The notes: generated by a model from the letters alone, not told the origin. DNA of 64,000 bases from Saprospira grandis DSM 2844 (GCF_000275825.1 NZ_JH719942.1:996988-1060987), one strand, 5' to 3'; counted from the first letter of the stretch, positions 38,901-52,122 are shown. A program made the numbers and translations.

Positions 38901-39356
38901 CTGCTCCTGCTTGATGCCTGCCACTCTGGAGAGGTCGATAAGGAGGTAGAAACCGAGAAGAAGTCGGTCAGTAGCTTTGCCCAAAACATCCTCAAAAGAA
39001 GCAAGTCGGGCAGTACCCTGATTCGGCCCAAAACAGGACTCAACAACTCTTTTGCCTATATGAAGGCCCTCTTTTCGGACCTAGAACAGCAGCGGGGAGT
39101 CACGGTTATTTCTGCCGCTGGCGGCTTCGAGCTGGCCTATGAATCCGATGAATGGGGCAACGGCCTCTTTACCTACGCCCTTTTAGAGGGCATCAAAAGC
39201 AAGAAAGCCGACCTCAATAATGATGGCCAAATCCCCATCCTAGAACTGCGGGATTTCCTTAGCCAAAGGGTGCTAGAGCTCAGCCAGGGCCAACAGCAAC
39301 CCACCGCCCGTCAATCCAATGTTTTCAATAATTTTATCCTCTACCGTTATGATTAG
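35925..39356 (+). CDS. Secreted WD40-repeat protein with a C-terminal caspase-like (peptidase C14 / CHAT-type) domain
   Basis: Signal peptide MMRYFLLLLLLWSSGALLAQ. WD40 repeats (GHHSNVRCLAFSEDGRFLATAGDDRSLRIWSM; GHKAAITDVGFSKDGQFLVS; GHNGGINDLAFDPLGKKAYSCSEDGLIKAWD). C-terminal His/Cys dyad context IVFYISSHG … NRLLLLDACHSG, typical of caspase-fold proteases. The track ORF starts at 35742, but those first 61 codons are REP sequence. Confidence 0.8.
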   Translation: MMRYFLLLLLLWSSGALLAQKEDIELVVSQGHHSNVRCLAFSEDGRFLATAGDDRSLRIWSMRLQQEYKVLWGHKAAITDVGFSKDGQFLVSIGSRLLCIWSMPEGKLLHQIEVDAQSKRLQFSETKPGHVMVRLPEGIAWVDLKTGAIDYSPKPFMRNWSNWILGQKTARVIIPERLDSIWAYSLAGQREQLFVGKGSYYKLLLSPNENYLAAYSGSRMAIDVWAYSSGKFIGSIEGLNPVQDFCFDISGERLWIMDLHAECKVYSCPQLQEELVVNKKSWGKEGLGQGDLVQVNIGQQIRPSPNGQFMGLAITRTEVNRKTGKMNDLRGLQLVDAQTGKERGLFKGHFKWITQLGLSPKGDKLLSVNMGKTRGLRSWSIKKGEIERYIHSSQSLSQSQDKKQLALLEFHEKSNPELTVYQLPSFRKLAKKKVDNCSAFALSGDGKKIVALQVDVNLKNPLNNRFYYSIWKLPNYKLEQEIEIESKESALPIFKSLLLDSAGDYLLAAAQNQAYSLELSSQKRTRFALPSSATYWRMLCLHPQQPALLFAVSEVVYNQEKKRVEELSKLLLYNYKTGELIEEVSSPKEGIIQSAAFSPDGQYLLTGQTAYQEVINFDVLLWDWPQKQLLCQFEGHNGGINDLAFDPLGKKAYSCSEDGLIKAWDIEKCALAASFIGYNELDYLIISPENYYKTSRSNTAGLGFRYAGDLYTYDQFDLRFNRPDKVLAPFTKAQRKLNIYTKAWKKRVRRLGFTEEQLERKLQLPELQIVNQLQLPIYVEDSLIQFQILAFDEQEELKKLRIFVNGVPYPQAEGIELSSRAGDSLRQELSIPLGQGPNKIQLSVVNAAGLESAKQSFQLAYQPKEKQASQLYFLGLGVSEFRDSSRNLKYPQKDAQDLGKALAHARKEEGVHQLLLDPNAPLEQLQKSARAFMLQAKINDQIVFYISSHGLLDDSLNYYLALPNSQFEQPQNGSWAYDDMEQLLDGLPCRNRLLLLDACHSGEVDKEVETEKKSVSSFAQNILKRSKSGSTLIRPKTGLNNSFAYMKALFSDLEQQRGVTVISAAGGFELAYESDEWGNGLFTYALLEGIKSKKADLNNDGQIPILELRDFLSQRVLELSQGQQQPTARQSNVFNNFILYRYD

Positions 39357-40512
39357 TTTCTTTTCTTTTGGGGCCTCCGCTGCGGCCAAAGGCCTTGCGG
39401 CGCTACGTTCCGGGGCTCGCAAGTCTGCTCGGCCCTTCGGCGGCATAGCCGCCTCGGTCTGCGGCTGCGCCGCCCCCCTCCACATCGCTAGGCCAAAACC
39501 AAAAACTGCCCTAGGGGCAGCCAAAAAGGGCCTTTCGGCCCTAGTACTAAATGCGCCGAATACCGCCCAACAGGCTGGCAAGTCGCCCTTTCTTTTGGGC
39601 CTTTTGCTGCTGTTGTTCTTGGGCCTACTGCCCGCCTGCCAGCCTGCTCAATCGGCAGAGGCAGAGCCCGCCCCCCTCCTTGCCAATAGTAACCCAATAG
39701 ATAGTTTGCCCCCAAGCCAACTCCCCCCCGCTATTCGCCAAGAGCCACAGCCTCGGCTAGCCCTATTTAGCGACAGTCTGACGACCCTAAGGATTGGGGG
39801 GCATCAGGTGGATATACAACTGCCCAAGACCCCCTTTAAGGGCAGTGTGATTATTTTGCCTGGCTATAATTTCCCGAAGGAGGATGCCTGCCAAAAAGCC
39901 CCTCTCTTTTGCCAGACCTTTTTGGAGGCGGGTTATCTACTCATTATGCCCGAGATGGGACGCTCCTTATATAGTAGTCAGTATTTTCCAGAAACCCAGG
40001 CTCGTTACAAGCGCTATCCCGACCAAAACTGGGTATTAGATAGTCTGCTCCCATATTTGCAGCTAGAATATGGGCTATTAGTAGATGGGCAAGACAATTT
40101 CTTAGTGGGCATTTCTACGGGGGGCCGAGGAGCGGCTCTTTTGGCCTTGGCTGCGCCCGAGTGTTGGACCGCAGTGGCCTGCCTGTCTGGAGATTTTGAC
40201 CAAAGCCAGATGCCCAATGATGGACTGATGCGCAACTTTTATGGACCTTATATACAATTTAGTCAGCGCTGGAAAACGGTGGATAATGTTATTGCTCGCA
40301 TAGACGACTGGCAAACCCCTATTTTTATTGGGCATGGCGGAGCCGATAAGGTGGTCCCGCCTGCCCAGTCTAAACAACTTTTTGATAGCTTGCAAAGCCG
40401 TTTAGATCAGGAGCTACTCTATTACTCTGCTCCCCCCAAGGCCGAGCACAACTATGCTTATTGGGGCGCTGAGGCCAAAAACATACTGGCCTTTTTTCAA
40501 TCATTGCCTTAG
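39319..40512 (+). CDS. Alpha/beta-hydrolase esterase (lipoprotein); start codon unresolved
   Basis: GxSxG nucleophile VGISTGGRGAALLA. IGHGGADKVVP and the C-terminal region are esterase-like. Lipobox …LLLLFLGLLPAC. The ATG at 39319 overlaps the upstream gene and reads through a REP copy. Probable true start is a TTG near 39595, just before the signal peptide. Confidence 0.6.
   Translation: MFSIILSSTVMISFFSFGASAAAKGLAALRSGARKSARPFGGIAASVCGCAAPLHIARPKPKTALGAAKKGLSALVLNAPNTAQQAGKSPFLLGLLLLLFLGLLPACQPAQSAEAEPAPLLANSNPIDSLPPSQLPPAIRQEPQPRLALFSDSLTTLRIGGHQVDIQLPKTPFKGSVIILPGYNFPKEDACQKAPLFCQTFLEAGYLLIMPEMGRSLYSSQYFPETQARYKRYPDQNWVLDSLLPYLQLEYGLLVDGQDNFLVGISTGGRGAALLALAAPECWTAVACLSGDFDQSQMPNDGLMRNFYGPYIQFSQRWKTVDNVIARIDDWQTPIFIGHGGADKVVPPAQSKQLFDSLQSRLDQELLYYSAPPKAEHNYAYWGAEAKNILAFFQSLP
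39366..39495. repeat. REP/MITE-like element
   Basis: ttttggggcctccgctgcggccaaaggccttgcggcgctacgttccggggctcgcaagtctgctcggcccttcgg … ccacatcgctaggcc. Confidence 0.8.
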
Positions 40513-40724: not shown

Positions 40725-40997
40725 CCTCGGAAGGGGTTACCCTACCCCTCAAGAGGGGTTACCCTACCCCTCAAGAGGGGTTACCCTACCCCTCAAGAGG
40801 GGTCACTCTACCCATCGGAAGGGGTTTCCCTACCCCTCAAGAGGGGTCACTCTACCCCTCGGGAGGGGTCACTCTATCCCTCGGGAGGGGTTACTCTACC
40901 CATCGGGAGGGGCTGCCCTACCCCTCAAGAGGGGTTTCCCTACCCATCGGGAGGGGTTACTCTACCCCTCAGGAGGGGTTACTCTACCCCTCGGGAG
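40725..40997. repeat. Tandem array of ~12 copies of a 22-bp hairpin-forming unit (consensus tacccctcaagaggggttaccc)
   Basis: Direct reading: …gaggggttaccctacccctcaagaggggttaccctacccctcaagaggggttaccctacccctc… with point variants (ggtcactctacccatcgg etc.). Each unit carries gaggggt/acccctc complementary arms. Confidence 0.9.
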
Positions 40998-41341
40998 GAA
41001 AATACTAGCAATAAAGAGGGGGAGATGGATTTAAAGACAATATAAAAACAGTCATTTACTCCTTTACATCACTACAGCTGAGCAACTTTTACAACCTTCT
41101 GACTGATAGCAATGCGCAGGCCCTCAGCTAGAAATAGTCCTTAAAACAACTGCTAACAAGAGCCAAAACTCTATAAAACACAAAAAAATAGCCTATTAAA
41201 GTATTTTTTATTAGTTATAACTTGCATTATAAAATTATTTACCCTATGTTTATAACGCAAATAACGCAAGAGCACATTGCTTTTACTAAAGAGCTCTAGT
41301 TGTTAGACATCTAATTCTTAATCAAATAAATACCTAGTACT

Positions 41342-41851
41342 ATGTCTAGAAGAAACATGATTAGCATTGAATTGCTTGCGGCTACGGTCCAGCAGATTCA
41401 GAGCGCATTCGAGACTATTGAGCAGTTGCTTGATGGTCATGTTGTAAACATCAGCCCGGAGGATCGTCAGCGTTATGGGAGTATAGATGAGCAGGCCAAA
41501 CTATTTATCTTTAAGGCGCATGATTTTTATCGGGCCAAGGGGCAGTTGCTTCCGAGCTACTTTGATACTGTGGAGTATGAAAAAGACTTTGAGGGGCGTA
41601 AACTATTTGAGCGTTTTGAACAAAAGGCGGTAGAATTACAGGAAAAAATTCGCGACACTCGGACGCTTTTGGATTATGATACCCTTCAGTATTCTTATAG
41701 TCTGTATCGACATCTAAAGAACATGAGCCAGGAAGACATTCCGGGCATTGATTTTTGGTTAGAGGAGATATCTCAGTTTTTCAAGCGTAGCGTTAACAAT
41801 GGTTTGGAAGAGCAGAGCAATGATGAGGTGGAGCCGCCTATTGTTGAGTAG
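41342..41851 (+). CDS. Hypothetical protein (169 aa, helical, acidic C-terminus)
   Basis: Clean ORF with ATG start. No recognisable motif. Lies in an AT-rich segment between the 22-bp array and a REP copy. Confidence 0.45.
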   Translation: MSRRNMISIELLAATVQQIQSAFETIEQLLDGHVVNISPEDRQRYGSIDEQAKLFIFKAHDFYRAKGQLLPSYFDTVEYEKDFEGRKLFERFEQKAVELQEKIRDTRTLLDYDTLQYSYSLYRHLKNMSQEDIPGIDFWLEEISQFFKRSVNNGLEEQSNDEVEPPIVE

Positions 41852-41934
41852 TTAGTTATTGTTTTAGATTTTGTGTTTATATATTGGTTACAGGCAAGCT
41901 CTACTTTTGTGGGGCTTGTTTTTTTTGTGGGTTT

Positions 41935-42168
41935 GGGTGGCGGCAGCAATGGCCCGCAGGGCCAAACGGCCACAACAAAGCCTTTAGGCTGCAGTTCGAC
42001 GACTGAAAGGAGTAACCGATGCGGCAGCAATGGCCCGCAGGGCCAAACGGCCTAGCGATGCGGCGGGGTGGCCGTCAGGCCAGACCGAGGAGCGAAGCGA
42101 CGAAGGGCCGAGCAGACCTGCGAGCCCCAAAGCGTAGCGCCGCAGCGAAGCTGCGGAGGCCCCAAATA
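41935..42168. repeat. REP/MITE-like element with an internal ~32-bp duplication
   Basis: cggcagcaatggcccgcagggccaaacggcc occurs twice. Followed by ggcctagcgatgcggcggggtggccgtcaggccagaccgagg … gggccgagcagacctgcgagccccaaagc … ggaggccccaaa. Confidence 0.8.
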
Positions 42169-42283: not shown

Positions 42284-42997
42284 ATGGGAAGAGCATTTGA
42301 ATATCGTAAGGAGCGCAAGATGAAGCGTTGGAGCCAGATGGCCAAGGTATTTACAAAAATTGGAAGAGAGATCGCATTGGCGGTAAAAGAGGGGGGCCCT
42401 GATCCGGAGAACAACCCGAAATTGCGTTTGGCGGTACAGAATTCCAAGGTGGCGAACATGCCTAAAAAGAACGTAGAGGCGGCCATTCAGCGGGCGACCT
42501 CTAAGGATGCGGAGGACTTGCAGGAGGTGGTATATGAGGGTTATGGGCCTCATGGTGTAGCTTTTATTATTGAGACCTTGACGGACAATCCGACTCGGAC
42601 GGTGGCCAATATGCGTTTTTATTTTAGTCGTTCTAATGGTTCATTGGGGACCTCGGGTTCGGTATCTTTTATGTTTGATCGTCAGGGTGAGTTTATCATT
42701 GATGCCGAGGGGTTGGATATGGAAGAGTTGGAGTTGGAATTGATTGATGGAGGAGCCGAAGAGATTGAGGTGAATGAGGATCAGATTTGTATTTATACGG
42801 CCTTTGAGGACTTTGGGAACATGCAAGCCAAGTTGGAAGAGTTGGGATTGGAGGTAAAAGAGGCTAGTTTGCAGCGTTTTGCCAATGCGAGTAAAAAGTT
42901 GGAAGATGCGGATCAAATTGCTGAGATAGAGAACCTTATTGATAAGTTTGAGGATGATGACGATGTGCAGAAGGTTTTCCACTCTATGGAAATTTAA
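42284..42997 (+). CDS. yebC: YebC/PmpR family DNA-binding transcriptional regulator
   Basis: MGRAFEYRKERKMKRWSQMAKVFTKIGREIALAVKEGGPDPENNPKLRLAVQNSKVANMPKKNVEAAIQRA is the classic YebC N-terminus. 237 aa. Confidence 0.9.
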   Translation: MGRAFEYRKERKMKRWSQMAKVFTKIGREIALAVKEGGPDPENNPKLRLAVQNSKVANMPKKNVEAAIQRATSKDAEDLQEVVYEGYGPHGVAFIIETLTDNPTRTVANMRFYFSRSNGSLGTSGSVSFMFDRQGEFIIDAEGLDMEELELELIDGGAEEIEVNEDQICIYTAFEDFGNMQAKLEELGLEVKEASLQRFANASKKLEDADQIAEIENLIDKFEDDDDVQKVFHSMEI

Positions 42998-43094: not shown

Positions 43095-43183
43095 GCCCAG
43101 GTGGTGGAATTGGTAGACACGCTACTTTGAGGGGGTAGTGCCTAATTACAGGCGTGCAAGTTCGACTCTTGTTCTGGGCACCA
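43095..43183 (+). tRNA. tRNA-Leu (anticodon GAG), type II with long variable arm, encoded CCA
   Basis: Acceptor GCCCAGG/TCTGGGC. D-loop with GG. Anticodon stem CTACT/GGTAG with loop TTGAGGG (U33, GAG, G37). Variable arm GCCT-AATTAC-AGGC. T-arm GCAAG-TTCGACT-CTTGT. Discriminator A plus CCA. Confidence 0.85.
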
Positions 43184-43187
43184 AAAA

Positions 43188-43221
43188 ATCTCGATATCGG
43201 AAGATGTCGGGATTTTTTTTT
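43188..43221 (+). terminator. Rho-independent terminator immediately after tRNA-Leu
   Basis: atctcgatatc-ggaa-gatgtcgggat forms an 11-bp stem with two G-U pairs, followed by T8-9. Confidence 0.6.
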
Positions 43222-43260
43222 GTAGCTTATAGTCATTCCTAAACCAAAGACTTCTAGTCA

Positions 43261-44478
43261 ATGACTAAAAACTACCAATCACTGCTACGGGCAGTAGAAC
43301 GAGAGCGAGAATTTCATAATAAGACAGCTAGGATTACAGGGGCGAACTACAATGTCTTTAGTCTATTGCAATTAGATCGAAAAGAAGATAAACTACATAG
43401 TCCCTTTATAGCGGATTTACTCCATCCTCAGGGCAGTCATCAGCAGGGGACAGTATTCTTAAAGGCCTTTATAAACATGCTCACTCAGAAATTTGAGGAT
43501 CTATCTAAACTAAGCAACTTAAAAGCAGAGCGGACTCGAGTCAATACTGAGGAATTTATAGGCAAAGTGAGAGCAAATGAAGGTGGTCGCATAGATATCT
43601 ATATTACAGATGGGCTACACACTATTGCAATCGAGAATAAAATTGATGCGGACGATCAAGAGAATCAACTATTGCGTTATGCTAATCATTTGAAAGGGAA
43701 AGAGAATACGGCTTTGCTCTACTTAAATCTAAAAGGGAGAGCTCCTTCAGAAAAGAGTACTAAGAGAAAATTAGTAGAAGGTACAGACTACTATGGGCTT
43801 TCTTATCAGAAAGATATTTTAACTTGGTTAGAGGACTGCAAGCGTATTGCAGTAGATCTACCTATTCTTAGAGAATGTTTGAAGCAGTATATTAACACTA
43901 TAAAAGAACTTTGCGGAATGAGCCTAAACGAAGACAAAAAGAAAGAAATAGAAAAGCTTATTAAGCATCATTTTGGGGCCGCATTAGATATTGCCACTCA
44001 TTTTGAAGCAGTTCGGCTTCAAATTATAAATGATTTTAGGATAGACCTTATTGACTACTTAACAGAAAACCTAGATAGTGCCATTTATCGGGTAGAGCCT
44101 TGCTTCGAGATTAACGCTAAGTACTCTAAAATTGTAATTCTGCCGCATAAAGAAAAGCACCCTTATAAACTTTACTTTAACATTGAATCCTTTAGTGCTG
44201 AGGGGTATTGGGGAGGCGACCTATATGTTGGTCTTCTCGCTAACCCTGGTCGTGGAGGCCTCAGTGACCAAGAAAAAAAAATTCTATCGGGAGAAGGCTT
44301 AAAGGGCTGGCTTCCTAAAAAGGAAAACTTAAATGTAAACACCAAAGAAGAAGCAACACTCAAACAGCTTAGTCAAGAAAAAAGTCGTAAGCAGCTAGTA
44401 GAACAACTAGGGCTACAGTGCGTACAGTTTATCCAAGAGCATGAGGACTTGCTAAAAAATTTATACAGGAAGTTTTAG
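43261..44478 (+). CDS. PD-(D/E)xK nuclease-family protein (PDDEXK_4-like N-domain plus uncharacterised C-domain)
   Basis: N-domain …EDKLHSPFIADLLHPQGSHQQGTVFLKAFINML… then GGRIDIYITDGLHTIAIENKIDADDQENQLLRYANHL (D…E-N-K catalytic-core pattern). AT-rich codon usage unlike the flanking genome. Confidence 0.55.
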   Translation: MTKNYQSLLRAVEREREFHNKTARITGANYNVFSLLQLDRKEDKLHSPFIADLLHPQGSHQQGTVFLKAFINMLTQKFEDLSKLSNLKAERTRVNTEEFIGKVRANEGGRIDIYITDGLHTIAIENKIDADDQENQLLRYANHLKGKENTALLYLNLKGRAPSEKSTKRKLVEGTDYYGLSYQKDILTWLEDCKRIAVDLPILRECLKQYINTIKELCGMSLNEDKKKEIEKLIKHHFGAALDIATHFEAVRLQIINDFRIDLIDYLTENLDSAIYRVEPCFEINAKYSKIVILPHKEKHPYKLYFNIESFSAEGYWGGDLYVGLLANPGRGGLSDQEKKILSGEGLKGWLPKKENLNVNTKEEATLKQLSQEKSRKQLVEQLGLQCVQFIQEHEDLLKNLYRKF

Positions 44479-44588
44479 GCTGCGAGGCAGAGGAAGTAAG
44501 CTAGGAAATAAAAAAGCATTATGGATTAGTACTTAAGCTCTAATTAAACGTATCTTACTTCTAATTAAAACACCTAATATAGAAACAA

Positions 44589-46046
44589 ATGATTCGCATA
44601 AATCATATACATATAGATGGGTTTAAAGACTCTGAAGACCAAAAAGATATCCAACTAGCCCGTGGTCCTATTACAGTTATTTATGGAGAGAATGGCTCTG
44701 GTAAAACCACTTTACTTCAACTGCTTTTTGCCTTTCTTAACAAAGATGAACTTACACTCAACCGTCAACAAGTACAAAAAATAGAAATTAACTACACAAT
44801 TGACGGCCTAGAGAAAGTAGCCTCTGCTAAAAACATAAGTACCTGGACAGTAGGTTTTGAATGGAATAACTGGGAAGAGCTCACACAAATCAAGAGTATC
44901 TTTCTAAGCGTTATGAGAAGTTCTAATGAAAGCAAAACAAGAGCAACACACGATAACCAACACTTTATTTTAGGTGATTTTTCGGATGAACGAGACTTAA
45001 GAGAAACGCTCAAAAAACTAGAACAACTACTTTTTGAGGCTAATAAAGAGCAATATCTTGGTGTACTTCATAGCTCTATACGGAAAATAAGATTAGCTAT
45101 AGATGATTTTTATCATAATTACAAAATGGATTTCAAGGGAGCCTCTCCTAAAAAATTACTAGAGATTCTAAATCAATTAGATTTACTGATTAGTATTGCT
45201 TCTAAAAAGGGAAGCCAAGAATTCAGTTCAAAATTGCAAGAATTAAGTAGTAAGCTTCAGCATTTTTGTACCATGAGCGGCTATTCAGATCTTGAACCAA
45301 TTAAGTTTGAGGATGATATGAGCCATATTCCTCACTATAATGTTCATCAACTATCTGCTAACGAAATCAGTAAAATTCTGACTAACTATTATAAAGCAGG
45401 GCAAGAACAAATTAGAGAAAATATCAACTTAGCCTTTTTTGACACTATTGAAAAAGCAATAGAAATAGAGACTGAAAAAAATAGCTTTGATCTTCCTAAG
45501 GATTTTAATACCCGTATTGCTAGACATGCTGACTATATTCTTCAAGCAGTACAAATTCACACATCAAGTCTAGCTGATAAAGTTCGTATGTTCTTAAAGG
45601 AAGGGGAAAATGCTCCTATCCCAGATAGTAAAATATTTAGAGCTCTTCTTCTTGAAGTGCTAAAAAGTGCTGAGCAAAAAAATCTAAAGCTTGAGGCTAT
45701 AGAAAAACTTCAAGAAGTTTTCAATTCCCATTTGTACAAAGGCAAAAAACTAATTATAACAAAAGAACAAGCCTATATCTCTATAAAAGAAAATAGAGGG
45801 CATACACTCCAAGAGTTATCAAGTGGTGAAAAGCAACTACTAAATATATTGACTTTCATTCTTTTATTGAGTAGAGAACGAAAACTCATCCTAATTGATG
45901 AGCCCGAAATCTCTCTTAACATAAAATGGCAGCGCAACTTCATTCCACTCTTGCAAGAGCTTAATCAAGATGCACAAATCATTGTTGCTTCTCATAGCCC
46001 TTCTATTGCGTACAAAAAAACAGAAACACTAGTAGAGTTGCTCTAA
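44589..46046 (+). CDS. ABC/SMC-like (AAA_15/21-type) ATPase, AriA-like
   Basis: Walker A IYGENGSGKTTLLQLLFAF near the N-terminus. Long helical insert. Signature LSSGEKQLLNILTFILL. Walker B KLILIDEPEISLN. H-loop IVASHSPS. Confidence 0.6.
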   Translation: MIRINHIHIDGFKDSEDQKDIQLARGPITVIYGENGSGKTTLLQLLFAFLNKDELTLNRQQVQKIEINYTIDGLEKVASAKNISTWTVGFEWNNWEELTQIKSIFLSVMRSSNESKTRATHDNQHFILGDFSDERDLRETLKKLEQLLFEANKEQYLGVLHSSIRKIRLAIDDFYHNYKMDFKGASPKKLLEILNQLDLLISIASKKGSQEFSSKLQELSSKLQHFCTMSGYSDLEPIKFEDDMSHIPHYNVHQLSANEISKILTNYYKAGQEQIRENINLAFFDTIEKAIEIETEKNSFDLPKDFNTRIARHADYILQAVQIHTSSLADKVRMFLKEGENAPIPDSKIFRALLLEVLKSAEQKNLKLEAIEKLQEVFNSHLYKGKKLIITKEQAYISIKENRGHTLQELSSGEKQLLNILTFILLLSRERKLILIDEPEISLNIKWQRNFIPLLQELNQDAQIIVASHSPSIAYKKTETLVELL

Positions 46047-46058
46047 ACCCTTAGTTTG

Positions 46059-47003
46059 ATGATCTCAAATGATATTCACGAATGTTTAGCTGCTGCAATT
46101 ATGGCTGGCAGTCCCACCATCCTCATAGAAGGAAAAGACGATGAAGAAGTCTATACCAATATTAGCAATGAACTAGGGCTAACATTAGAGTTTCTCCCCA
46201 TAGATTTTGTAGACACAACTGGCTATGGGGTTTTGGGTAATTGTGATCAGCTTGTAGCTAGCCTAAGGGACTTAGACAACAGCTGTAAAGACCCTAAATG
46301 GATCAAATTTATTGGTGGAGTTATAGACCTAGATAGTCGCAGCTTTGCCAATCAAATTAGTAGGCCGCCTAGGAATCTATACATATTAAAGATGTATTCT
46401 ATTGAGTCCTACTTTGTTAATCAGGAGAGCTTTATTGCCGTATTCAATAGTCTCAACTCTGCACCTATTTCCAATGCGCTTAAAGACAGTTACTACAATG
46501 ATTTTAATAGCTTCTTTGCCCCTGTAGAAGAGGAGCTTTTTTGGGTGGCTACAGAGGCGCTACAAAATGTTTGTGGGGCTAATCCTAGTCCTGAAATTAC
46601 ATACGGTGTTGACTTTAGTTTTAAAGGCTATATGCAAGCGCCTTCAGTCAACCCTAAGCGGCAGATAGTTGATCGGATTCAAGCTAAAAAGGAAGCTTTA
46701 AGAAGTTGGTTAAACAATGCTTTTAGTACTGCCGTTATACAAAAACAGCTCATCATTAAGGGGAAATGGTGGCTATCCGTTTTTTTAGATATTATTGTTG
46801 AATATGCTAAAAAGCTAGAAGCAGACTGCAGTTTCGCCCCTTCTGGTCCTTGTCGCTATTGTGCTATAGAAGATAAAGGTAACTGTCAATTCAAACTCAA
46901 AGTTAAAAGTCCAACGCCAGCGGCACTTAAGGCAATGGCCTATCAGACCTCCGTATCTGATCAAGATCCTGGGCTCTGCAATTTTCTGGAGTTGTTTAAT
47001 TAA
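46059..47003 (+). CDS. Small TOPRIM-like protein (DUF4435/AriB-like) coupled to the upstream ATPase
   Basis: PTILIEGKDDEEVY (TOPRIM Glu in an hEG motif) and, ~65 aa later, IGGVIDLDS (DxD). 12-bp gap from the upstream ATPase. The track ORF begins at TTG 46056; ATG 46059 preferred. Confidence 0.5.
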   Translation: MISNDIHECLAAAIMAGSPTILIEGKDDEEVYTNISNELGLTLEFLPIDFVDTTGYGVLGNCDQLVASLRDLDNSCKDPKWIKFIGGVIDLDSRSFANQISRPPRNLYILKMYSIESYFVNQESFIAVFNSLNSAPISNALKDSYYNDFNSFFAPVEEELFWVATEALQNVCGANPSPEITYGVDFSFKGYMQAPSVNPKRQIVDRIQAKKEALRSWLNNAFSTAVIQKQLIIKGKWWLSVFLDIIVEYAKKLEADCSFAPSGPCRYCAIEDKGNCQFKLKVKSPTPAALKAMAYQTSVSDQDPGLCNFLELFN

Positions 47004-47049
47004 AAAGCAAAGCCGCCAGCTTATTTATATAAGCTAACGACTTTATACC

Positions 47050-47562
47050 CTACTCCAAATTCCACCAAAGCTTCCCCCCTACTCCCCCATCCGCTCCAAT
47101 TTCTAGCTCCCAAATACTACCCAAAGGCGTATGGCAACCATAGGGACAAGTATAGGGGTAGTCGAGTAGCTCTTTCTTGGGGTCCAAATACTCCAAAATC
47201 ATATTGATGGGCCCACAATGGCTAAAGATGACCGCGGGCCGAGCCCACAACTGCTCCTCCTCCCCCCGATACCAATCCTGCACTCTTTGTTCTAATGACT
47301 CATGCGGCTCTATTTCTTTCTCTCTTTCTCTTAATGCCTGCACTATCTTCGGCTGCAAAGCTGGCACAAGCTGGGCATAGGGCGCATAGGTTTGCCCTAC
47401 CCGCAAATAATCGCTACAATATACGGCCTGAATATCTTTCTTTGCCAAATATTGGGCTATGGCTAGGGCTTGCTTTTGTCCTTTTCTGCCCAAGGCTGGC
47501 CCCGGAAAACCCCGATATTCTTTGGGAGCAGGCTGGGCGTGACGCACTAAATAAAGCTTCAT
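47050..47562 (-). CDS. Histidine phosphatase superfamily protein (phosphoglycerate-mutase-like / SixA-type)
   Basis: MKLYLVRHAQPAP… with the RHA/RHG catalytic His motif at the N-terminus. 170 aa. Last gene of a five-gene minus-strand operon. Confidence 0.65.
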   Translation of the reverse strand: MKLYLVRHAQPAPKEYRGFPGPALGRKGQKQALAIAQYLAKKDIQAVYCSDYLRVGQTYAPYAQLVPALQPKIVQALREREKEIEPHESLEQRVQDWYRGEEEQLWARPAVIFSHCGPINMILEYLDPKKELLDYPYTCPYGCHTPLGSIWELEIGADGGVGGKLWWNLE

Positions 47563-48254
47563 ATTTTATGTTGGCAGTCTCCTTTTTCGTTAATAATTTC
47601 ATGCTCCCCCGCTTGGTTCTGCACCAATGCAAAGCCATTGTAAAAGGGCTCTAGCTGCAAAAACCGACGATTATATACGGGCCGCCCCGCCAAATCGATA
47701 TGCAACCAACCCGCCTCATCTTTGGCCCGAGCAAATCCTTTGTGAAAAACATCTAACTCTAGATAGCGATAAGGATGTAAGGCCCTGCCCTGAGAATCAA
47801 TATGCAAACAATAACCATCGGCCTGACGAACACAGGCGTAGCCATCTCTAAAGTCGCCCGCATAGCAATAACGCGCCCCATAAAGCGGATCTCCCTGCAG
47901 ATCAATATGGAAGTATTCGCCGCCTTTTCGGACCGTGCAAATGTCTTGCTGATAGTTGCCACACCAGTCATAACGCTCCCCATAAATGGCATGTCCTTTT
48001 GTGTCTATATGAAACTGCCCTTGCTCAGAACAGACCGCCGCCCGATCACAATAATAACCAAAGGTCCGCAAATACCGCTGAGGGTATATAGCCACTCCAG
48101 TTGTATCAATATGATAACTACCACTATGATCTTCTACAGGCGCCAAACCCGGCGCATGAAACTTTAATACCGACTTAAAAGGGCCAAAAATAGCCCGCTC
48201 TTCCAAGCAAAATCCATTGCCCTCCGCATTGACTTTTATGTTTTTCCAATTCAT
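47559..48254 (-). CDS. WG-repeat-containing protein
   Basis: Five ~38-aa repeats of the form W/F/Y-x-HID-x-x-G-x-x-(V/I/L)Y-x-x-RY…F-x-x-G-(F/Y)A-x-V (e.g. WLHIDLAGRPVYNRRFLQLEPFYNGFALVQNQAG). 4-bp overlaps with both neighbours. Confidence 0.5.
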   Translation of the reverse strand: MNWKNIKVNAEGNGFCLEERAIFGPFKSVLKFHAPGLAPVEDHSGSYHIDTTGVAIYPQRYLRTFGYYCDRAAVCSEQGQFHIDTKGHAIYGERYDWCGNYQQDICTVRKGGEYFHIDLQGDPLYGARYCYAGDFRDGYACVRQADGYCLHIDSQGRALHPYRYLELDVFHKGFARAKDEAGWLHIDLAGRPVYNRRFLQLEPFYNGFALVQNQAGEHEIINEKGDCQHKI

Positions 48255-49222
48255 CTTTTCTCAAATATCAATATAGATTGTAAATCATTTAAGGGGCGCT
48301 TTTCTAAATAAATAAAGCCTGTTTGCTCCGCCAATTTCCGATAGGCCGCTAAGGTCCGCTCTTGGCTCTTACAAATGGCCAACATGTTCAAACTAAGCAG
48401 CTCGGCCCCATCGGCTAGCTGCTCTTTTAGGATTTCTAAGATATACAAGCGCCCTCCTTTTGGCAAGGCGGCATAAACGTTTTCCAATATTTTCAAGGCC
48501 GCTTCATCTGGCCAATCATGTAGTACTCTAGCCAGAAAAATATGCTCGGCGACTTGGGGAATAGGCGCAAAAAAATCTACAGGAATAGGCCGAAAAGGCA
48601 AGTCTCCCGCTGGCAATAAAGCCAATACCTTGGGCTTGTCTAATAAATAAAATGTAGGCCCAGGATAAACTCTCGCCAAGTCCTTGAGCAAAGCCCCCAA
48701 ACCGCCGCCAAGGTCCATTACAGCTTTGGCTTCCGACAAATCTAATTGCTCAGCCAAATTTGCATAATCATCCCGCGCATACTCATTCATGGCCAAATGA
48801 TACACCCGATTGCTCTCGGGATGCTCATCCAAATAATCAAAAAAAGGCTGCCCGTAAATATGGTCAAAGGCAGGTTTGTCTTCTAAAACACTATAGGCCA
48901 AATGCTGCCAAGCCCGCAAATGCTCCTCCCCCCAAAGCAAACAAGCATACTTCAAACTTTTAGGATGTTCCTCCGCCAGCTGCGCCCCTTTTTTAGCCAA
49001 AATATACTGCCCATTTTCTTCTGTTAAGGCCTCCAATTGCTCCAATGCCGCCAATAATAACTGCAAACTTGCCCGCTTGGCCCCTAGCTTTTCGGCCAAA
49101 TTGGCCAAACTAAGCGGCCCCTCCCAAAGCAGATCAAATACCCCCAACTGACAGGCGGTCCGCAAGGGCAAATAATGCCAATAACTGCTAAAACTATTCT
49201 TCAACTCCTGACTAATACTCAT
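48251..49222 (-). CDS. Class I SAM-dependent O-methyltransferase (dimerisation domain plus MTase domain)
   Basis: VMDLGGGLGALLKDLARVYPGPTFYLLDKPKV (motif I) and overall plant-type OMT architecture. The track ORF runs to 49294 through a REP copy; start placed at ATG 49220-49222 (MSISQELKN…). Confidence 0.75.
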   Translation of the reverse strand: MSISQELKNSFSSYWHYLPLRTACQLGVFDLLWEGPLSLANLAEKLGAKRASLQLLLAALEQLEALTEENGQYILAKKGAQLAEEHPKSLKYACLLWGEEHLRAWQHLAYSVLEDKPAFDHIYGQPFFDYLDEHPESNRVYHLAMNEYARDDYANLAEQLDLSEAKAVMDLGGGLGALLKDLARVYPGPTFYLLDKPKVLALLPAGDLPFRPIPVDFFAPIPQVAEHIFLARVLHDWPDEAALKILENVYAALPKGGRLYILEILKEQLADGAELLSLNMLAICKSQERTLAAYRKLAEQTGFIYLEKRPLNDLQSILIFEKR

Positions 49223-49246
49223 CTTTTTCTGTTCTACATGATTTGA

Positions 49247-49372
49247 TTTTGGGGCCTCCTGCCTACGGCAGGCGCTACGCTTTGGGGCTCGCAAGTCTGC
49301 TCGGCCCTTCGGCGGCTTTGCCGCCTCGGTCTGGCCTAACGGCCACCCCGCCGCATCGCTAGGCCAAAAAAG
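49247..49372. repeat. REP/MITE-like element inserted inside the operon between the radical SAM and OMT genes
   Basis: ttttggggcctcctgcctacggcaggcgctacgctttggggctcgcaagtctgctcggcccttcggcgg … ggccaccccgccgcatcgctaggcc. Confidence 0.8.
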
Positions 49373-49403
49373 GCCTGCGGCTGAGCTAGAGAGCTAAAAC
49401 CGC

Positions 49404-50429
49404 CTACTTCCGCATCGTACAGCCTTGGCAAAGGGGCTTTTCCTTATAATTTTCAACCAACTCTAAGTAGGCTTTGCTTTGCAGGACCTCCACAAGGCTG
49501 CGGTCCTGAATATTACCAAAGTCGCCTAAGGCTTGCCGCTGCTCATCAGGGGCGCAGCAAGGCGATATTTTCCCCGTGGCCGAGACCCAAAGTTCTTTAT
49601 TTAGAAACGGACAGTCGTAGTCTTCCGGGACCGCCTCTGCTGCGCCTGCAGTTAGCGGGACAATATTTTCTAGTAAAACAGCTTTGCCATTGGGCAGTAA
49701 ATATTGGTCTCTAGCCGCATAGGCCTCTTCTACATATTGGTTCCATTGGGCCATGCTTTGGGCATCCTTACGGAAAGATAAGTCCTTGATTTCATCAAAA
49801 TGATCCCACAACTGATGCCCTTTTACCCGATCTACGCCAAGACTAGCCGCTAGCTTAATAATATCGGCCAGTTCCTGCATATTGTTTTGCATAAAGGTCA
49901 ATTGGAAACTTACTCGGCAATAATAGCCCGTTTCTGCAAAATGCTGGTCTCGTACAGCCACAAAGCGACGGACATGATCTACACACTGCTCAAAGTTAAT
50001 CCCTGGCATGACTTCCTCGGCTGTTTTGGCGGTGGCCGCATTCCAAGAGATTTTAATGTCTGTCGTTTGTGGTACAATCAGTTTGGCCCAAACTTCTACG
50101 GGCTTTTTAGGAAAGGTCCCATTGGTGGTGAGGTTAATTTTGATTCCATACTGCTCACTCAAATCAAAGATTTGCTCAAAGCCTTTATACAGCAAGGGTT
50201 CCCCCATCGTAGAGGGGATAATCTCTTTGACGCCCAAGGCTTGGGCCTGCTCAAAAATCTGGACCACCCACTCAAAAGGCATACGGCGACGCTTGACGCC
50301 CGTGTTTTTATAGAGGTCCGCGATAAATGTACTATAAGGACTATGCTCCTCGCACATAATACAATGCAAGTTGCAATCTTCAGGGTTGGTGTCTATGGTA
50401 ATTCGCCAAAAGTCTTTAGGCTTGGACAT
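49404..50429 (-). CDS. Radical SAM enzyme with C-terminal SPASM/twitch-like auxiliary cluster domain
   Basis: CNLHCIMC (Cx3Cx2C) near the N-terminus. Cys-rich C-terminus CPFLN…GKISPCCAP…CQGCTMRK. Confidence 0.85.
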   Translation of the reverse strand: MSKPKDFWRITIDTNPEDCNLHCIMCEEHSPYSTFIADLYKNTGVKRRRMPFEWVVQIFEQAQALGVKEIIPSTMGEPLLYKGFEQIFDLSEQYGIKINLTTNGTFPKKPVEVWAKLIVPQTTDIKISWNAATAKTAEEVMPGINFEQCVDHVRRFVAVRDQHFAETGYYCRVSFQLTFMQNNMQELADIIKLAASLGVDRVKGHQLWDHFDEIKDLSFRKDAQSMAQWNQYVEEAYAARDQYLLPNGKAVLLENIVPLTAGAAEAVPEDYDCPFLNKELWVSATGKISPCCAPDEQRQALGDFGNIQDRSLVEVLQSKAYLELVENYKEKPLCQGCTMRK

Positions 50430-51943: not shown

Positions 51944-52103
51944 TAGGCGGCGAAGCCGCCGCAAAGGAGCGAAGCGACTGGCCTAGCGATGTGCAGCAGT
52001 GCGGCGCAGCCGCAGACCCAGCAAAAAACTTGTTTTTTTGTGCAGGGCCGAGCGAACAGCGAGCTGCGAAACGTAGCGCCTGCCGAAGGCAGGAGGCCCC
52101 CAA
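51944..52103. repeat. REP/MITE-like element in the divergent promoter region
   Basis: ggcggcgaagccgccgcaaaggagcgaagcgactggcctagcgatgtgcag … gggccgagcgaacagcgagctgcgaaacgtagcgcctgccgaaggcaggaggccccc. Confidence 0.8.
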
Positions 52104-52122
52104 AAAAACCCTTACTTAATTT

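Follow-up and report, generated by a model that had tools for sequence, protein, structure and literature searches.

Genes and Composition of the Islet

We analyzed a window of 64,000 nucleotides (nt) from Saprospira grandis DSM 2844, by which we mean the whole stretch of DNA and whose positions serve as coordinates throughout, and describe here a low-GC islet directly 3′ of a tRNA-Leu(GAG) gene that encodes a candidate nuclease (open reading frame 1; ORF1) and a predicted ATPase/nuclease pair of the PARIS type (ORF2 and ORF3). The source is confirmed by window proteins that are 100% identical to proteins of DSM 2844: SapgrDRAFT_0849 (yebC), SapgrDRAFT_0851, EJF52587, SapgrDRAFT_0853, and EJF52589. 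The features of the islet and its immediate flanks are listed below, with strand in parentheses and the basis of each call at the end of the line where needed.

42284..42997 (+), yebC/pmpR-family gene, conserved left flank; Pfam annotations and source protein names
43095..43183 (+), tRNA-Leu(GAG) gene, intact with CCA; ARAGORN and Rfam (RF00005, 44.1 bits)
43188..43223 (+), tRNA terminator, left boundary; hairpin and T-run at 43188-43221, alignment and blastn
43224..47003 (no strand), strain-variable cargo cassette, ~3.78 kb, ~36.7% GC; composition and allele comparison
43261..44478 (+), ORF1, 405 amino acids (aa), candidate PD-(D/E)xK nuclease, PDDEXK_4, PADLOC candidate PDC-S26
44589..46046 (+), ORF2, 485 aa, AriA-like ABC ATPase
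46056..47003 (+), ORF3, 315 aa, AriB-like DUF4435/TOPRIM nuclease, predicted; TTG start at 46056, ATG at 46059
47008..47045 (no strand), hairpin between the convergent ariB-like and His_Phos genes, right boundary; terminator scan, three-allele alignment, and blastn
47050..47562 (-), His_Phos_1 gene, conserved right flank; Pfam

An earlier reading of this DNA (the original prediction) had proposed that a tRNA-Leu(GAG) gene and its terminator are followed by a sharp drop in GC and by a PD-(D/E)xK-family protein, an ABC/SMC-like ATPase, and a small TOPRIM-like protein, forming a horizontally acquired defense islet without mobility genes. Each of these elements was recovered. The tRNA gene, the single one in the window by both ARAGORN and Rfam, stands with its terminator directly 5′ of the islet, the Rfam scan giving no match besides it, and the three genes lie where they had been placed, all on the plus strand, with Pfam domains that agree with the earlier calls (PDDEXK_4; AAA_21, AAA_15, and SMC_N; and a weak match to the TOPRIM family DUF4435). 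The GC content of 43184-47003 is 36.7%, compared with 48.0% in the remaining window (z = -7.3 vs. windows of the same size outside it), making this the lowest 3.8-kb stretch of the 64 kb, and GC at third codon positions (GC3) is 0.26-0.36 in the islet genes vs. 0.44-0.52 in flanking genes, a deficit of 0.16-0.26 relative to their neighbors. The gaps between the genes measure 110 nt (ORF1-ORF2) and 9 nt (ORF2-ORF3), no terminator is predicted in either, and a sigma-70 promoter scan gave no signal above chance. In agreement with the absence of an integrase noted earlier, we found no integrase, transposase, or recombinase domain in the three islet genes and 10 flanking ORFs scanned (33.5-54 kb), and when both strands of 43261-50000 were searched for degenerate copies of the tRNA 3′ end plus terminator, direct or inverted, none attained 14 matches out of 16; such a repeat had not been seen by eye either. 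Defense-type content is likewise supported by PADLOC, which assigns the genes to PDC-S26 and AriA/AriB.

Alternative Cargoes between Two Terminators

We reached alternative alleles of the site via the members of 90%-identity protein clusters, the loci concerned being L102 (S. grandis str. Lewin) and L005, L104, and L105 (metagenome contigs of Saprospira relatives). The clusters of the flanking YebC and His_Phos proteins cover three named S. grandis strains, and DSM 2844 is the only named genome in the clusters of the three islet proteins. The trio of DSM 2844 recurs in L005, which is 94-98% identical to it in nucleotide sequence and equally low in GC; L104 and L105 carry a 410-aa ATPase gene and a 317-aa AriB-like gene without ORF1; and Lewin carries 2.5 kb with an ADH_zinc gene and an AraC-family gene on the opposite strand. 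A further state, a single-gene cargo (WBM75552) in the third named S. grandis strain, is suggested by accession numbering. Thus, related strains differ in what they hold at the identical site, as expected of horizontally acquired DNA and contrary to what a set of genes shared by all of them would have given. The alternative alleles in Lewin, L104, and L105 also lack an integrase.

The borders of the site are fixed. The yebC-tRNA-Leu(GAG) pair is kept at the left in every fetched locus that reaches across this border (L102, L104, and L105) and is also present in L008 and L009, and the operon that ends in His_Phos is kept at the right in L102, L104, L105, and L005. At the left, homology among alleles stops at 43223, two bases past the T-run of the terminator: a three-allele alignment is invariant through ...TTTTTTTTTGT and unrelated beyond it, and blastn breakpoints agree. 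At the right, homology with Lewin resumes at ~46999-47007, where the stop codon of ORF3 lies and the hairpin shared with His_Phos begins. In more distant relatives each flank block is kept and the adjacency of the two blocks is lost. The right-hand terminator at 47008-47045 differs somewhat among strains, its right arm reading TAACGAC in DSM 2844 vs. TGGCGGC in Lewin and L104, which gives a weaker stem. Within the right junction, conservation is lowest at this terminator, which shows 89% identity to L005 across 46 nt.

A genome-contig scan with YebC found relatives at 73-81% identity as its best matches, with no S. grandis genome and no empty site among them, and two of these relatives keep yebC-tRNA-Leu with unrelated genes downstream. 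A metagenome-contig scan with His_Phos returned only relatives of at most 50% identity with no tRNA nearby, and an exact-match look-up of the window YebC and His_Phos proteins returned re-assemblies of the same strain only. The strain comparison at the tRNA-Leu site proposed in the original prediction therefore delivered alternative cargo and no clean empty site among the fetched loci.

We conclude that 43224-47003 is cargo in a recombination hotspot bounded by the tRNA-Leu(GAG) terminator and the terminator shared with His_Phos, and that the islet is a genuine, horizontally exchanged defense islet composed of known kinds of parts. Because there is no integrase and no att repeat, and because all alleles break at the same two terminators, the cargo is most likely exchanged when DNA that has been taken up recombines homologously with the conserved flanks. 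The adjacency to the tRNA gene, one of the grounds for the original prediction, is real; as a trace of integrase-mediated insertion it is probably misleading, since no att-like repeat accompanies it and the alleles break at two terminators.

Integrase-free defense hotspots between core genes are known from pan-genome studies of Escherichia coli and Vibrio. The Saprospira site resembles them in its alternative cargo, fixed core borders, low GC, and lack of mobility genes, and differs in the small size of the cassette (two to three genes) and in that one allele is metabolic/regulatory.

ORF1 Is a Candidate Nuclease of the PDDEXK_4 Family

ORF1 matches Pfam PDDEXK_4 (PF14281) at 137.7 bits and the PADLOC family PDC-S26 (PDLC04974) at 389.1 bits over its full length (residues 1-400 aligned with positions 1-396 of a 401-position profile). 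An alignment of 46 homologs shows D112 and E125-x-K127 to be invariant, which is the PD-(D/E)xK signature and supplies the catalytic core expected of PDC-S26. After the nuclease domain (approximately residues 30-212) come a helical linker and, at the C terminus, an alpha/beta domain with no assigned function. An AlphaFold2 (AF2) model with a mean predicted local distance difference test score (pLDDT) of 87.5 gave weak structural matches to restriction-endonuclease-like folds and, for the C-terminal half, no structural match. ORF1 would be a nuclease effector with a predicted sensing or regulatory domain at its C terminus, and it probably cuts nucleic acid on activation.

The PDC families are 145 untested candidates that were proposed from their embedding in BREX, DISARM, and type I restriction-modification (R-M) systems (bioRxiv 10.1101/2024.01.29.577857), and our literature search found no report of a demonstrated function for a member of PDC-S26/PDDEXK_4. 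Two of three ORF1 relatives occupy the slot between hsdS and hsdR in type I R-M operons (hsdM-hsdS-X-hsdR), one of these two adjoining McrBC, and the third stands alone. ORF1 shares the full-length hidden Markov model (HMM) match, the D...ExK motif, and such relatives with this family, and differs from it in its own surroundings: no R-M genes adjoin it among the flanking ORFs scanned in DSM 2844, so that the embedding from which PDCs were proposed is missing, and it lies outside R-M, BREX, and DISARM, next to a PARIS-type pair instead.

The hsdS-X-hsdR position of the relatives equals that of PrrC in the EcoprrI type I R-M locus. PrrC is an anticodon nuclease and, like PARIS, a second-line system set off by an anti-restriction factor (bioRxiv 10.1101/2024.01.29.577857, PMC9122126). 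By this positional analogy one may speculate that ORF1 acts as a backup of restriction, and it could serve as a second module, one that detects anti-restriction factors. The parallel in function is speculative, as the two proteins have no relation in sequence or fold, ORF1 being of the PD-(D/E)xK type and PrrC an ABC-ATPase/HEPN protein.

ORF2 and ORF3 Resemble the Two Subunits of PARIS

PARIS was described from P4-like satellites of E. coli B185 and belongs to class 4 of the OLD family (PMC9122126, PMC11464382, PMC12409363). ORF2 matches the Pfam families AAA_21 (83.6 bits), AAA_15 (67.1 bits), and SMC_N (59.5 bits) and contains the motifs of an ABC ATPase, namely a Walker A GENGSGKT (K39), a signature LSSGE410, a Walker B LILIDE (D437, E438), and an H-loop SHS468-470, along with a long insertion at approximately residues 76-355. 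Its best PADLOC family is AriA, and its best sequence matches in the PDB are AriA chains (8v45, 8ux9_B, and 8v46_A); the PADLOC models mad3 (71.5 bits), AbiLi, NsnB, PtuA, and GajA are also matched, as is phrog_7507 over the full length. The counterparts of K39 and E438 in E. coli AriA are K39 and E393 (PMC11464382).

ORF3, named a DUF4435 domain-containing protein by NCBI, is more divergent. It reaches 21.2 bits against Pfam DUF4435 (E = 2.8e-4; cut-off, 27) over the TOPRIM half only, its Pfam matches are limited to DUF4435 and DUF3226, and its PADLOC matches are limited to AriB/AriAB (AriB at 32.8 bits, E = 1.8e-8). An exhaustive HMMER search identified 168 cluster representatives related to ORF3, the most similar among the matches listed outside its own cluster being ~30% identical over the full length, and 43 of 62 members of the ORF3 family match DUF4435, with a best E of 7e-13. 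Searched against the PDB, the family profile has AriB (8ux9_A and 8v46_D) as its only matches at E ≤ 0.001 (best E = 6e-5), and Foldseek with the AF2 model of ORF3 (pLDDT 92.9) likewise returns only these two AriB chains from the PDB at E ≤ 0.001, with an alignment spanning the whole length (E = 4.5e-6, probability 1.00, TM-score 0.53, 12% identity). A tblastn search of phage genomes with ORF3 gave no match.

Five acidic residues (E25, D29, D91, D93, and E117) are invariant in the 62 family members and align with E26, D30, D88, E90, and E122 of E. coli AriB, which bind metal (PMC11464382), and with the residues of a Pseudoalteromonas homolog that was retrieved with the N-terminal 160 residues of E. 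coli AriB as query and is 46% identical to them. The ORF3 subfamily additionally has a CX7CX2CX7C motif (C258, C266, C269, and C277), in which C266 and C277 are invariant and C258 and C269 are conserved in at least 90% of sequences. This motif is missing from the canonical AriB homolog of Pseudoalteromonas, and we found no mention of zinc or cysteine in the PARIS papers searched for these words; a zinc site at the four cysteines (Cys4) is plausible.

Gene neighborhoods point the same way. A 424-433-aa ABC ATPase gene lies directly upstream of all three distant ORF3 relatives inspected, so that ATPase and nuclease appear to travel together, and none of the three has a PDDEXK_4 gene nearby. Beside the nearest of these relatives, the ATPase shares 39-44% identity with ORF2 toward its two termini, and the ATPase-then-nuclease order holds in L086, L099, L100, and L104.

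On the homology of both halves to PARIS subunits and on the aligned catalytic residues, we assign ORF2 and ORF3 as a predicted divergent PARIS-type pair (OLD-family class 4). As in PARIS, the ATPase gene precedes the nuclease gene (here with a 9-nt gap), the first product is an AAA_15/AAA_21-type ABC ATPase with a long insertion, the second is predicted to fold as DUF4435/TOPRIM from end to end, the Walker A and Walker B residues and the whole set of five TOPRIM acidic residues are kept, and each protein finds its best match among solved structures in its PARIS counterpart. In contrast to known PARIS, ORF3 is only 12% identical to the solved AriB and scores below threshold for DUF4435, its C-terminal domain carries the cysteine motif, the pair is chromosomal and lies between core genes of a Bacteroidota host instead of in a satellite or prophage, and ariA has been replaced over a retained ariB within the species. 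The published detection rule for PARIS sets minima of 32 bits for AAA_15 or 27 bits for AAA_21, together with a minimum of 27 bits for DUF4435 (PMC9122126). ORF2 passes its ATPase part, and the low DUF4435 score of ORF3 would cause the DSM 2844 pair to be missed; the 27-bit cut-off is a threshold of detection and not a biological property.

A Mosaic of ariA and ariB between Strains

Comparison of DSM 2844 with L104, whose flanks are 91-93% identical, shows that the pair itself is a mosaic.

44589..46121 (+), allele-swap segment, ariA and the first ~22 ariB codons; 60-column identity scan against L104
AriA residues 1-75, 56% identity between alleles
AriA residues 76-355 (the insertion, 75 aa shorter in L104), 17% identity between alleles
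AriA residues 356-432, 38% identity between alleles
AriA residues 433-485, 83% identity between alleles

Nucleotide identity falls to 40-65% at the start of ariA and stays there across most of the gene, rises to 75-82% at 45892-46011 (coding for the Walker B to H-loop region), is 53-57% over the ariA stop codon and the first ~22 ariB codons, and then is 88-100% (mostly at least 92%) from 46122 to the end of ariB, whose body is ~96% identical. At the protein level, the AriA alleles share 34% of their amino acids overall and the AriB alleles 87%, with the differences in AriB clustered before residue 23. The L104-type allele is present on two independent contigs from different samples, so it is no assembly chimera.

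In E. coli, the AriA insertion forms pores that are thought to recognize triggers, and the AriB region next to E26 contacts AriA (PMC11464382). Replacement of ariA and the ariB 5′ end over a kept effector fits an exchange of sensors. We tentatively suggest, as a possibility we would not yet favor, a natural sensor swap in which AriA and the first ~22 AriB residues are exchanged and the catalytic AriB body with its Cys4 motif is kept. If true, AriA plus the AriB N terminus would be a portable recognition-and-docking unit, one that could combine anew with an effector that stays the same. This would go against the published view, based on trees of 11 clades in which ariA and ariB co-evolve, that the two are seldom swapped (PMC11464382).

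Proposed Mode of Action and Alternative Readings

Our preferred reading is that the hotspot cargo of DSM 2844 comprises a stand-alone PD-(D/E)xK module and a divergent PARIS-type module with PARIS-like action, to which we give a probability of roughly 75%. By analogy with E. coli PARIS, in which an AriA hexamer sequesters AriB, the AriA-like ABC ATPase would keep the AriB-like TOPRIM nuclease in an inactive state until bound by a phage protein, whereupon AriB would be released in an ATP-dependent way and would cleave specific host tRNAs, stopping translation and aborting the infection; complex formation, trigger, RNA target, and phenotype of the Saprospira pair would all follow this model. ORF1, as a separate module, would cut nucleic acid once activated.

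Several points weigh against this reading. The DUF4435 score of ORF3 is under both the Pfam cut-off and the 27-bit PARIS rule (PMC9122126), and the protein has just 12% identity and a global TM-score of 0.53 to the solved AriB. PDC-S26 is a candidate system only (bioRxiv 10.1101/2024.01.29.577857). The cargo of Lewin, ADH_zinc and AraC, is not defense-related, so the hotspot is not specific to defense; no donor was found, the nearest relatives outside Saprospira being at most 40% identical; and a clean empty site is lacking among the fetched loci.

How the cassette arrived could be told differently. The low GC might be a trait of the gene families in long-resident native genes, and L005, a relative with ~5% diverged flanks, does carry these genes in this position at an equal GC, with no sign of amelioration; different cargo in other strains, abrupt loss of homology at both ends, and the GC3 deficit against neighboring genes make this highly improbable, the alleles of Lewin and L104 already largely refuting it. 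An origin in which an island with an integrase once inserted in tRNA-Leu and has since decayed to the present islet would account for the islet's place directly 3′ of the tRNA gene, its foreign composition, and its strain variation. We consider such an origin quite unlikely, as coding sequence fills the cassette with no integrase or pseudogene-sized gap, the tRNA 3′ end is not repeated, and three different cargoes share the same terminator-to-terminator breakpoints, none of them with an integrase. An inverted repeat bracketing 7.1 kb around the islet (42049-42141/49271-49365, 95-98% identity) was considered as a pair of island ends and rejected, because it belongs to an interspersed repeat of ~125 nt with at least five copies that also occurs in Lewin.

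The constitution of the islet raises two other alternatives. Co-orientation, short gaps without a predicted terminator, and persistence of the trio in a second lineage (L005) are what a single three-gene system would give; yet L104 and L105 have the ATPase/DUF4435 pair at this very site without ORF1, the three distant ORF3 relatives have the ATPase and no PDDEXK_4 neighbor, and none of the three ORF1 relatives examined has a PARIS-type ATPase/DUF4435 pair beside it. Since the pair occurs without ORF1 and the relatives of ORF1 and ORF3 have separate neighborhoods, the islet consists of two independent modules, ORF1 and ORF2-ORF3; the defense islet stands, its unity as one system does not, and we regard a joint three-gene system as decidedly unlikely. 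The pair might also belong to another ABC-ATPase/TOPRIM defense family (AbiL, MADS3-4, HEC-01, or a split OLD/Gabija) that acts differently, for example by DNA degradation. The sub-threshold DUF4435 score, the additional PADLOC matches of ORF2 from mad3 to GajA, and the Cys4 motif missing from canonical AriB could be read in this way, but a PARIS component is the best solved-structure match for each protein, the majority of the ORF3 family is DUF4435, and ORF3 has no PADLOC match beyond AriB/AriAB. Furthermore, the ATPase partner in AbiL and MADS3-4 has an RloB (PF13707) or DUF4276 (PF14103) domain, and ORF3 has neither. Membership in such a family is therefore unlikely, and the reading as a stand-alone nuclease module beside a PARIS-type pair is the one we retain.

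Other Features of the Window and Flanks

The GC-rich interspersed repeat of ~125 nt is always intergenic and lies at 33267-33384 (-), 39360-39498 (-), 42049-42166 (+), 49247-49369 (-), and 51977-52104 (+), with at least four copies in L102 as well. Its conserved blocks (GGCCTAGCGATG, GGGCCGAGCAGAC, TGCGAGCCCC, and CGTAGCGCC) are separated by short hairpins whose stems vary among copies by paired changes. Rfam contains no match to the repeat, its folding z-score is weak (-1.66), and it breaks short-read assemblies. It resembles a repetitive extragenic palindromic (REP) or miniature inverted-repeat transposable element (MITE), or a family of structured RNAs.

To the right of the islet, His_Phos_1 is the last gene of an operon (47050-50429, minus strand) of radical-SAM/SPASM, O-methyltransferase, WG-repeat, and His_Phos genes by Pfam, which may be a tailoring cluster for a peptide or natural product. 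The operon is conserved in L102 and L104 and in a distant Saprospiraceae contig (L095, 4463-8427), where it has one gene more. The O-methyltransferase probably starts at ATG 49222 and not at TTG 49294, which lies inside a repeat copy. In the interval between the O-methyltransferase and radical-SAM genes, Lewin has an extra 300-aa Sigma54_activ_2 gene (L102 15853-16755, corresponding to approximately 49393-49401 of the window) that is absent from DSM 2844 and L104; this second strain-specific indel adjoins a copy of the 125-nt repeat.

To the left, a tandem array of 12.5 copies of a 22-nt unit (40725-40998) precedes a 169-aa ORF (41342-41851) in a patch of low GC (0.36-0.41). Neither Pfam nor PADLOC gives a match for this ORF, which is conserved in Lewin and L104, and 41176-41971 is ~84% identical to Lewin in nucleotide sequence vs. 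92-96% in its flanks. Further upstream, 35742-39356 (+) encodes a 1,204-aa protein with WD40 beta-propellers and a C-terminal caspase (Peptidase_C14) domain, conserved in Lewin and L104 and weakly matched by the PADLOC "caspase" model, which may be of the conflict or programmed-cell-death type.

Significance

The islet is made of known kinds of parts and does not overturn current understanding. It extends PARIS-type immunity, at the level of predicted components, to a predatory marine member of the Bacteroidota and to a sequence-divergent subfamily whose DSM 2844 member falls 6 bits short of the original HMM rule. Moreover, the site is a clean example, resolved to the base, of a cargo hotspot that lies between two terminators and has no integrase. 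Finally, the natural alleles of the pair, with different AriA and near-identical AriB proteins, are suited to mapping the trigger specificity of AriA, the docking of AriB, and the role of the Cys4 motif.

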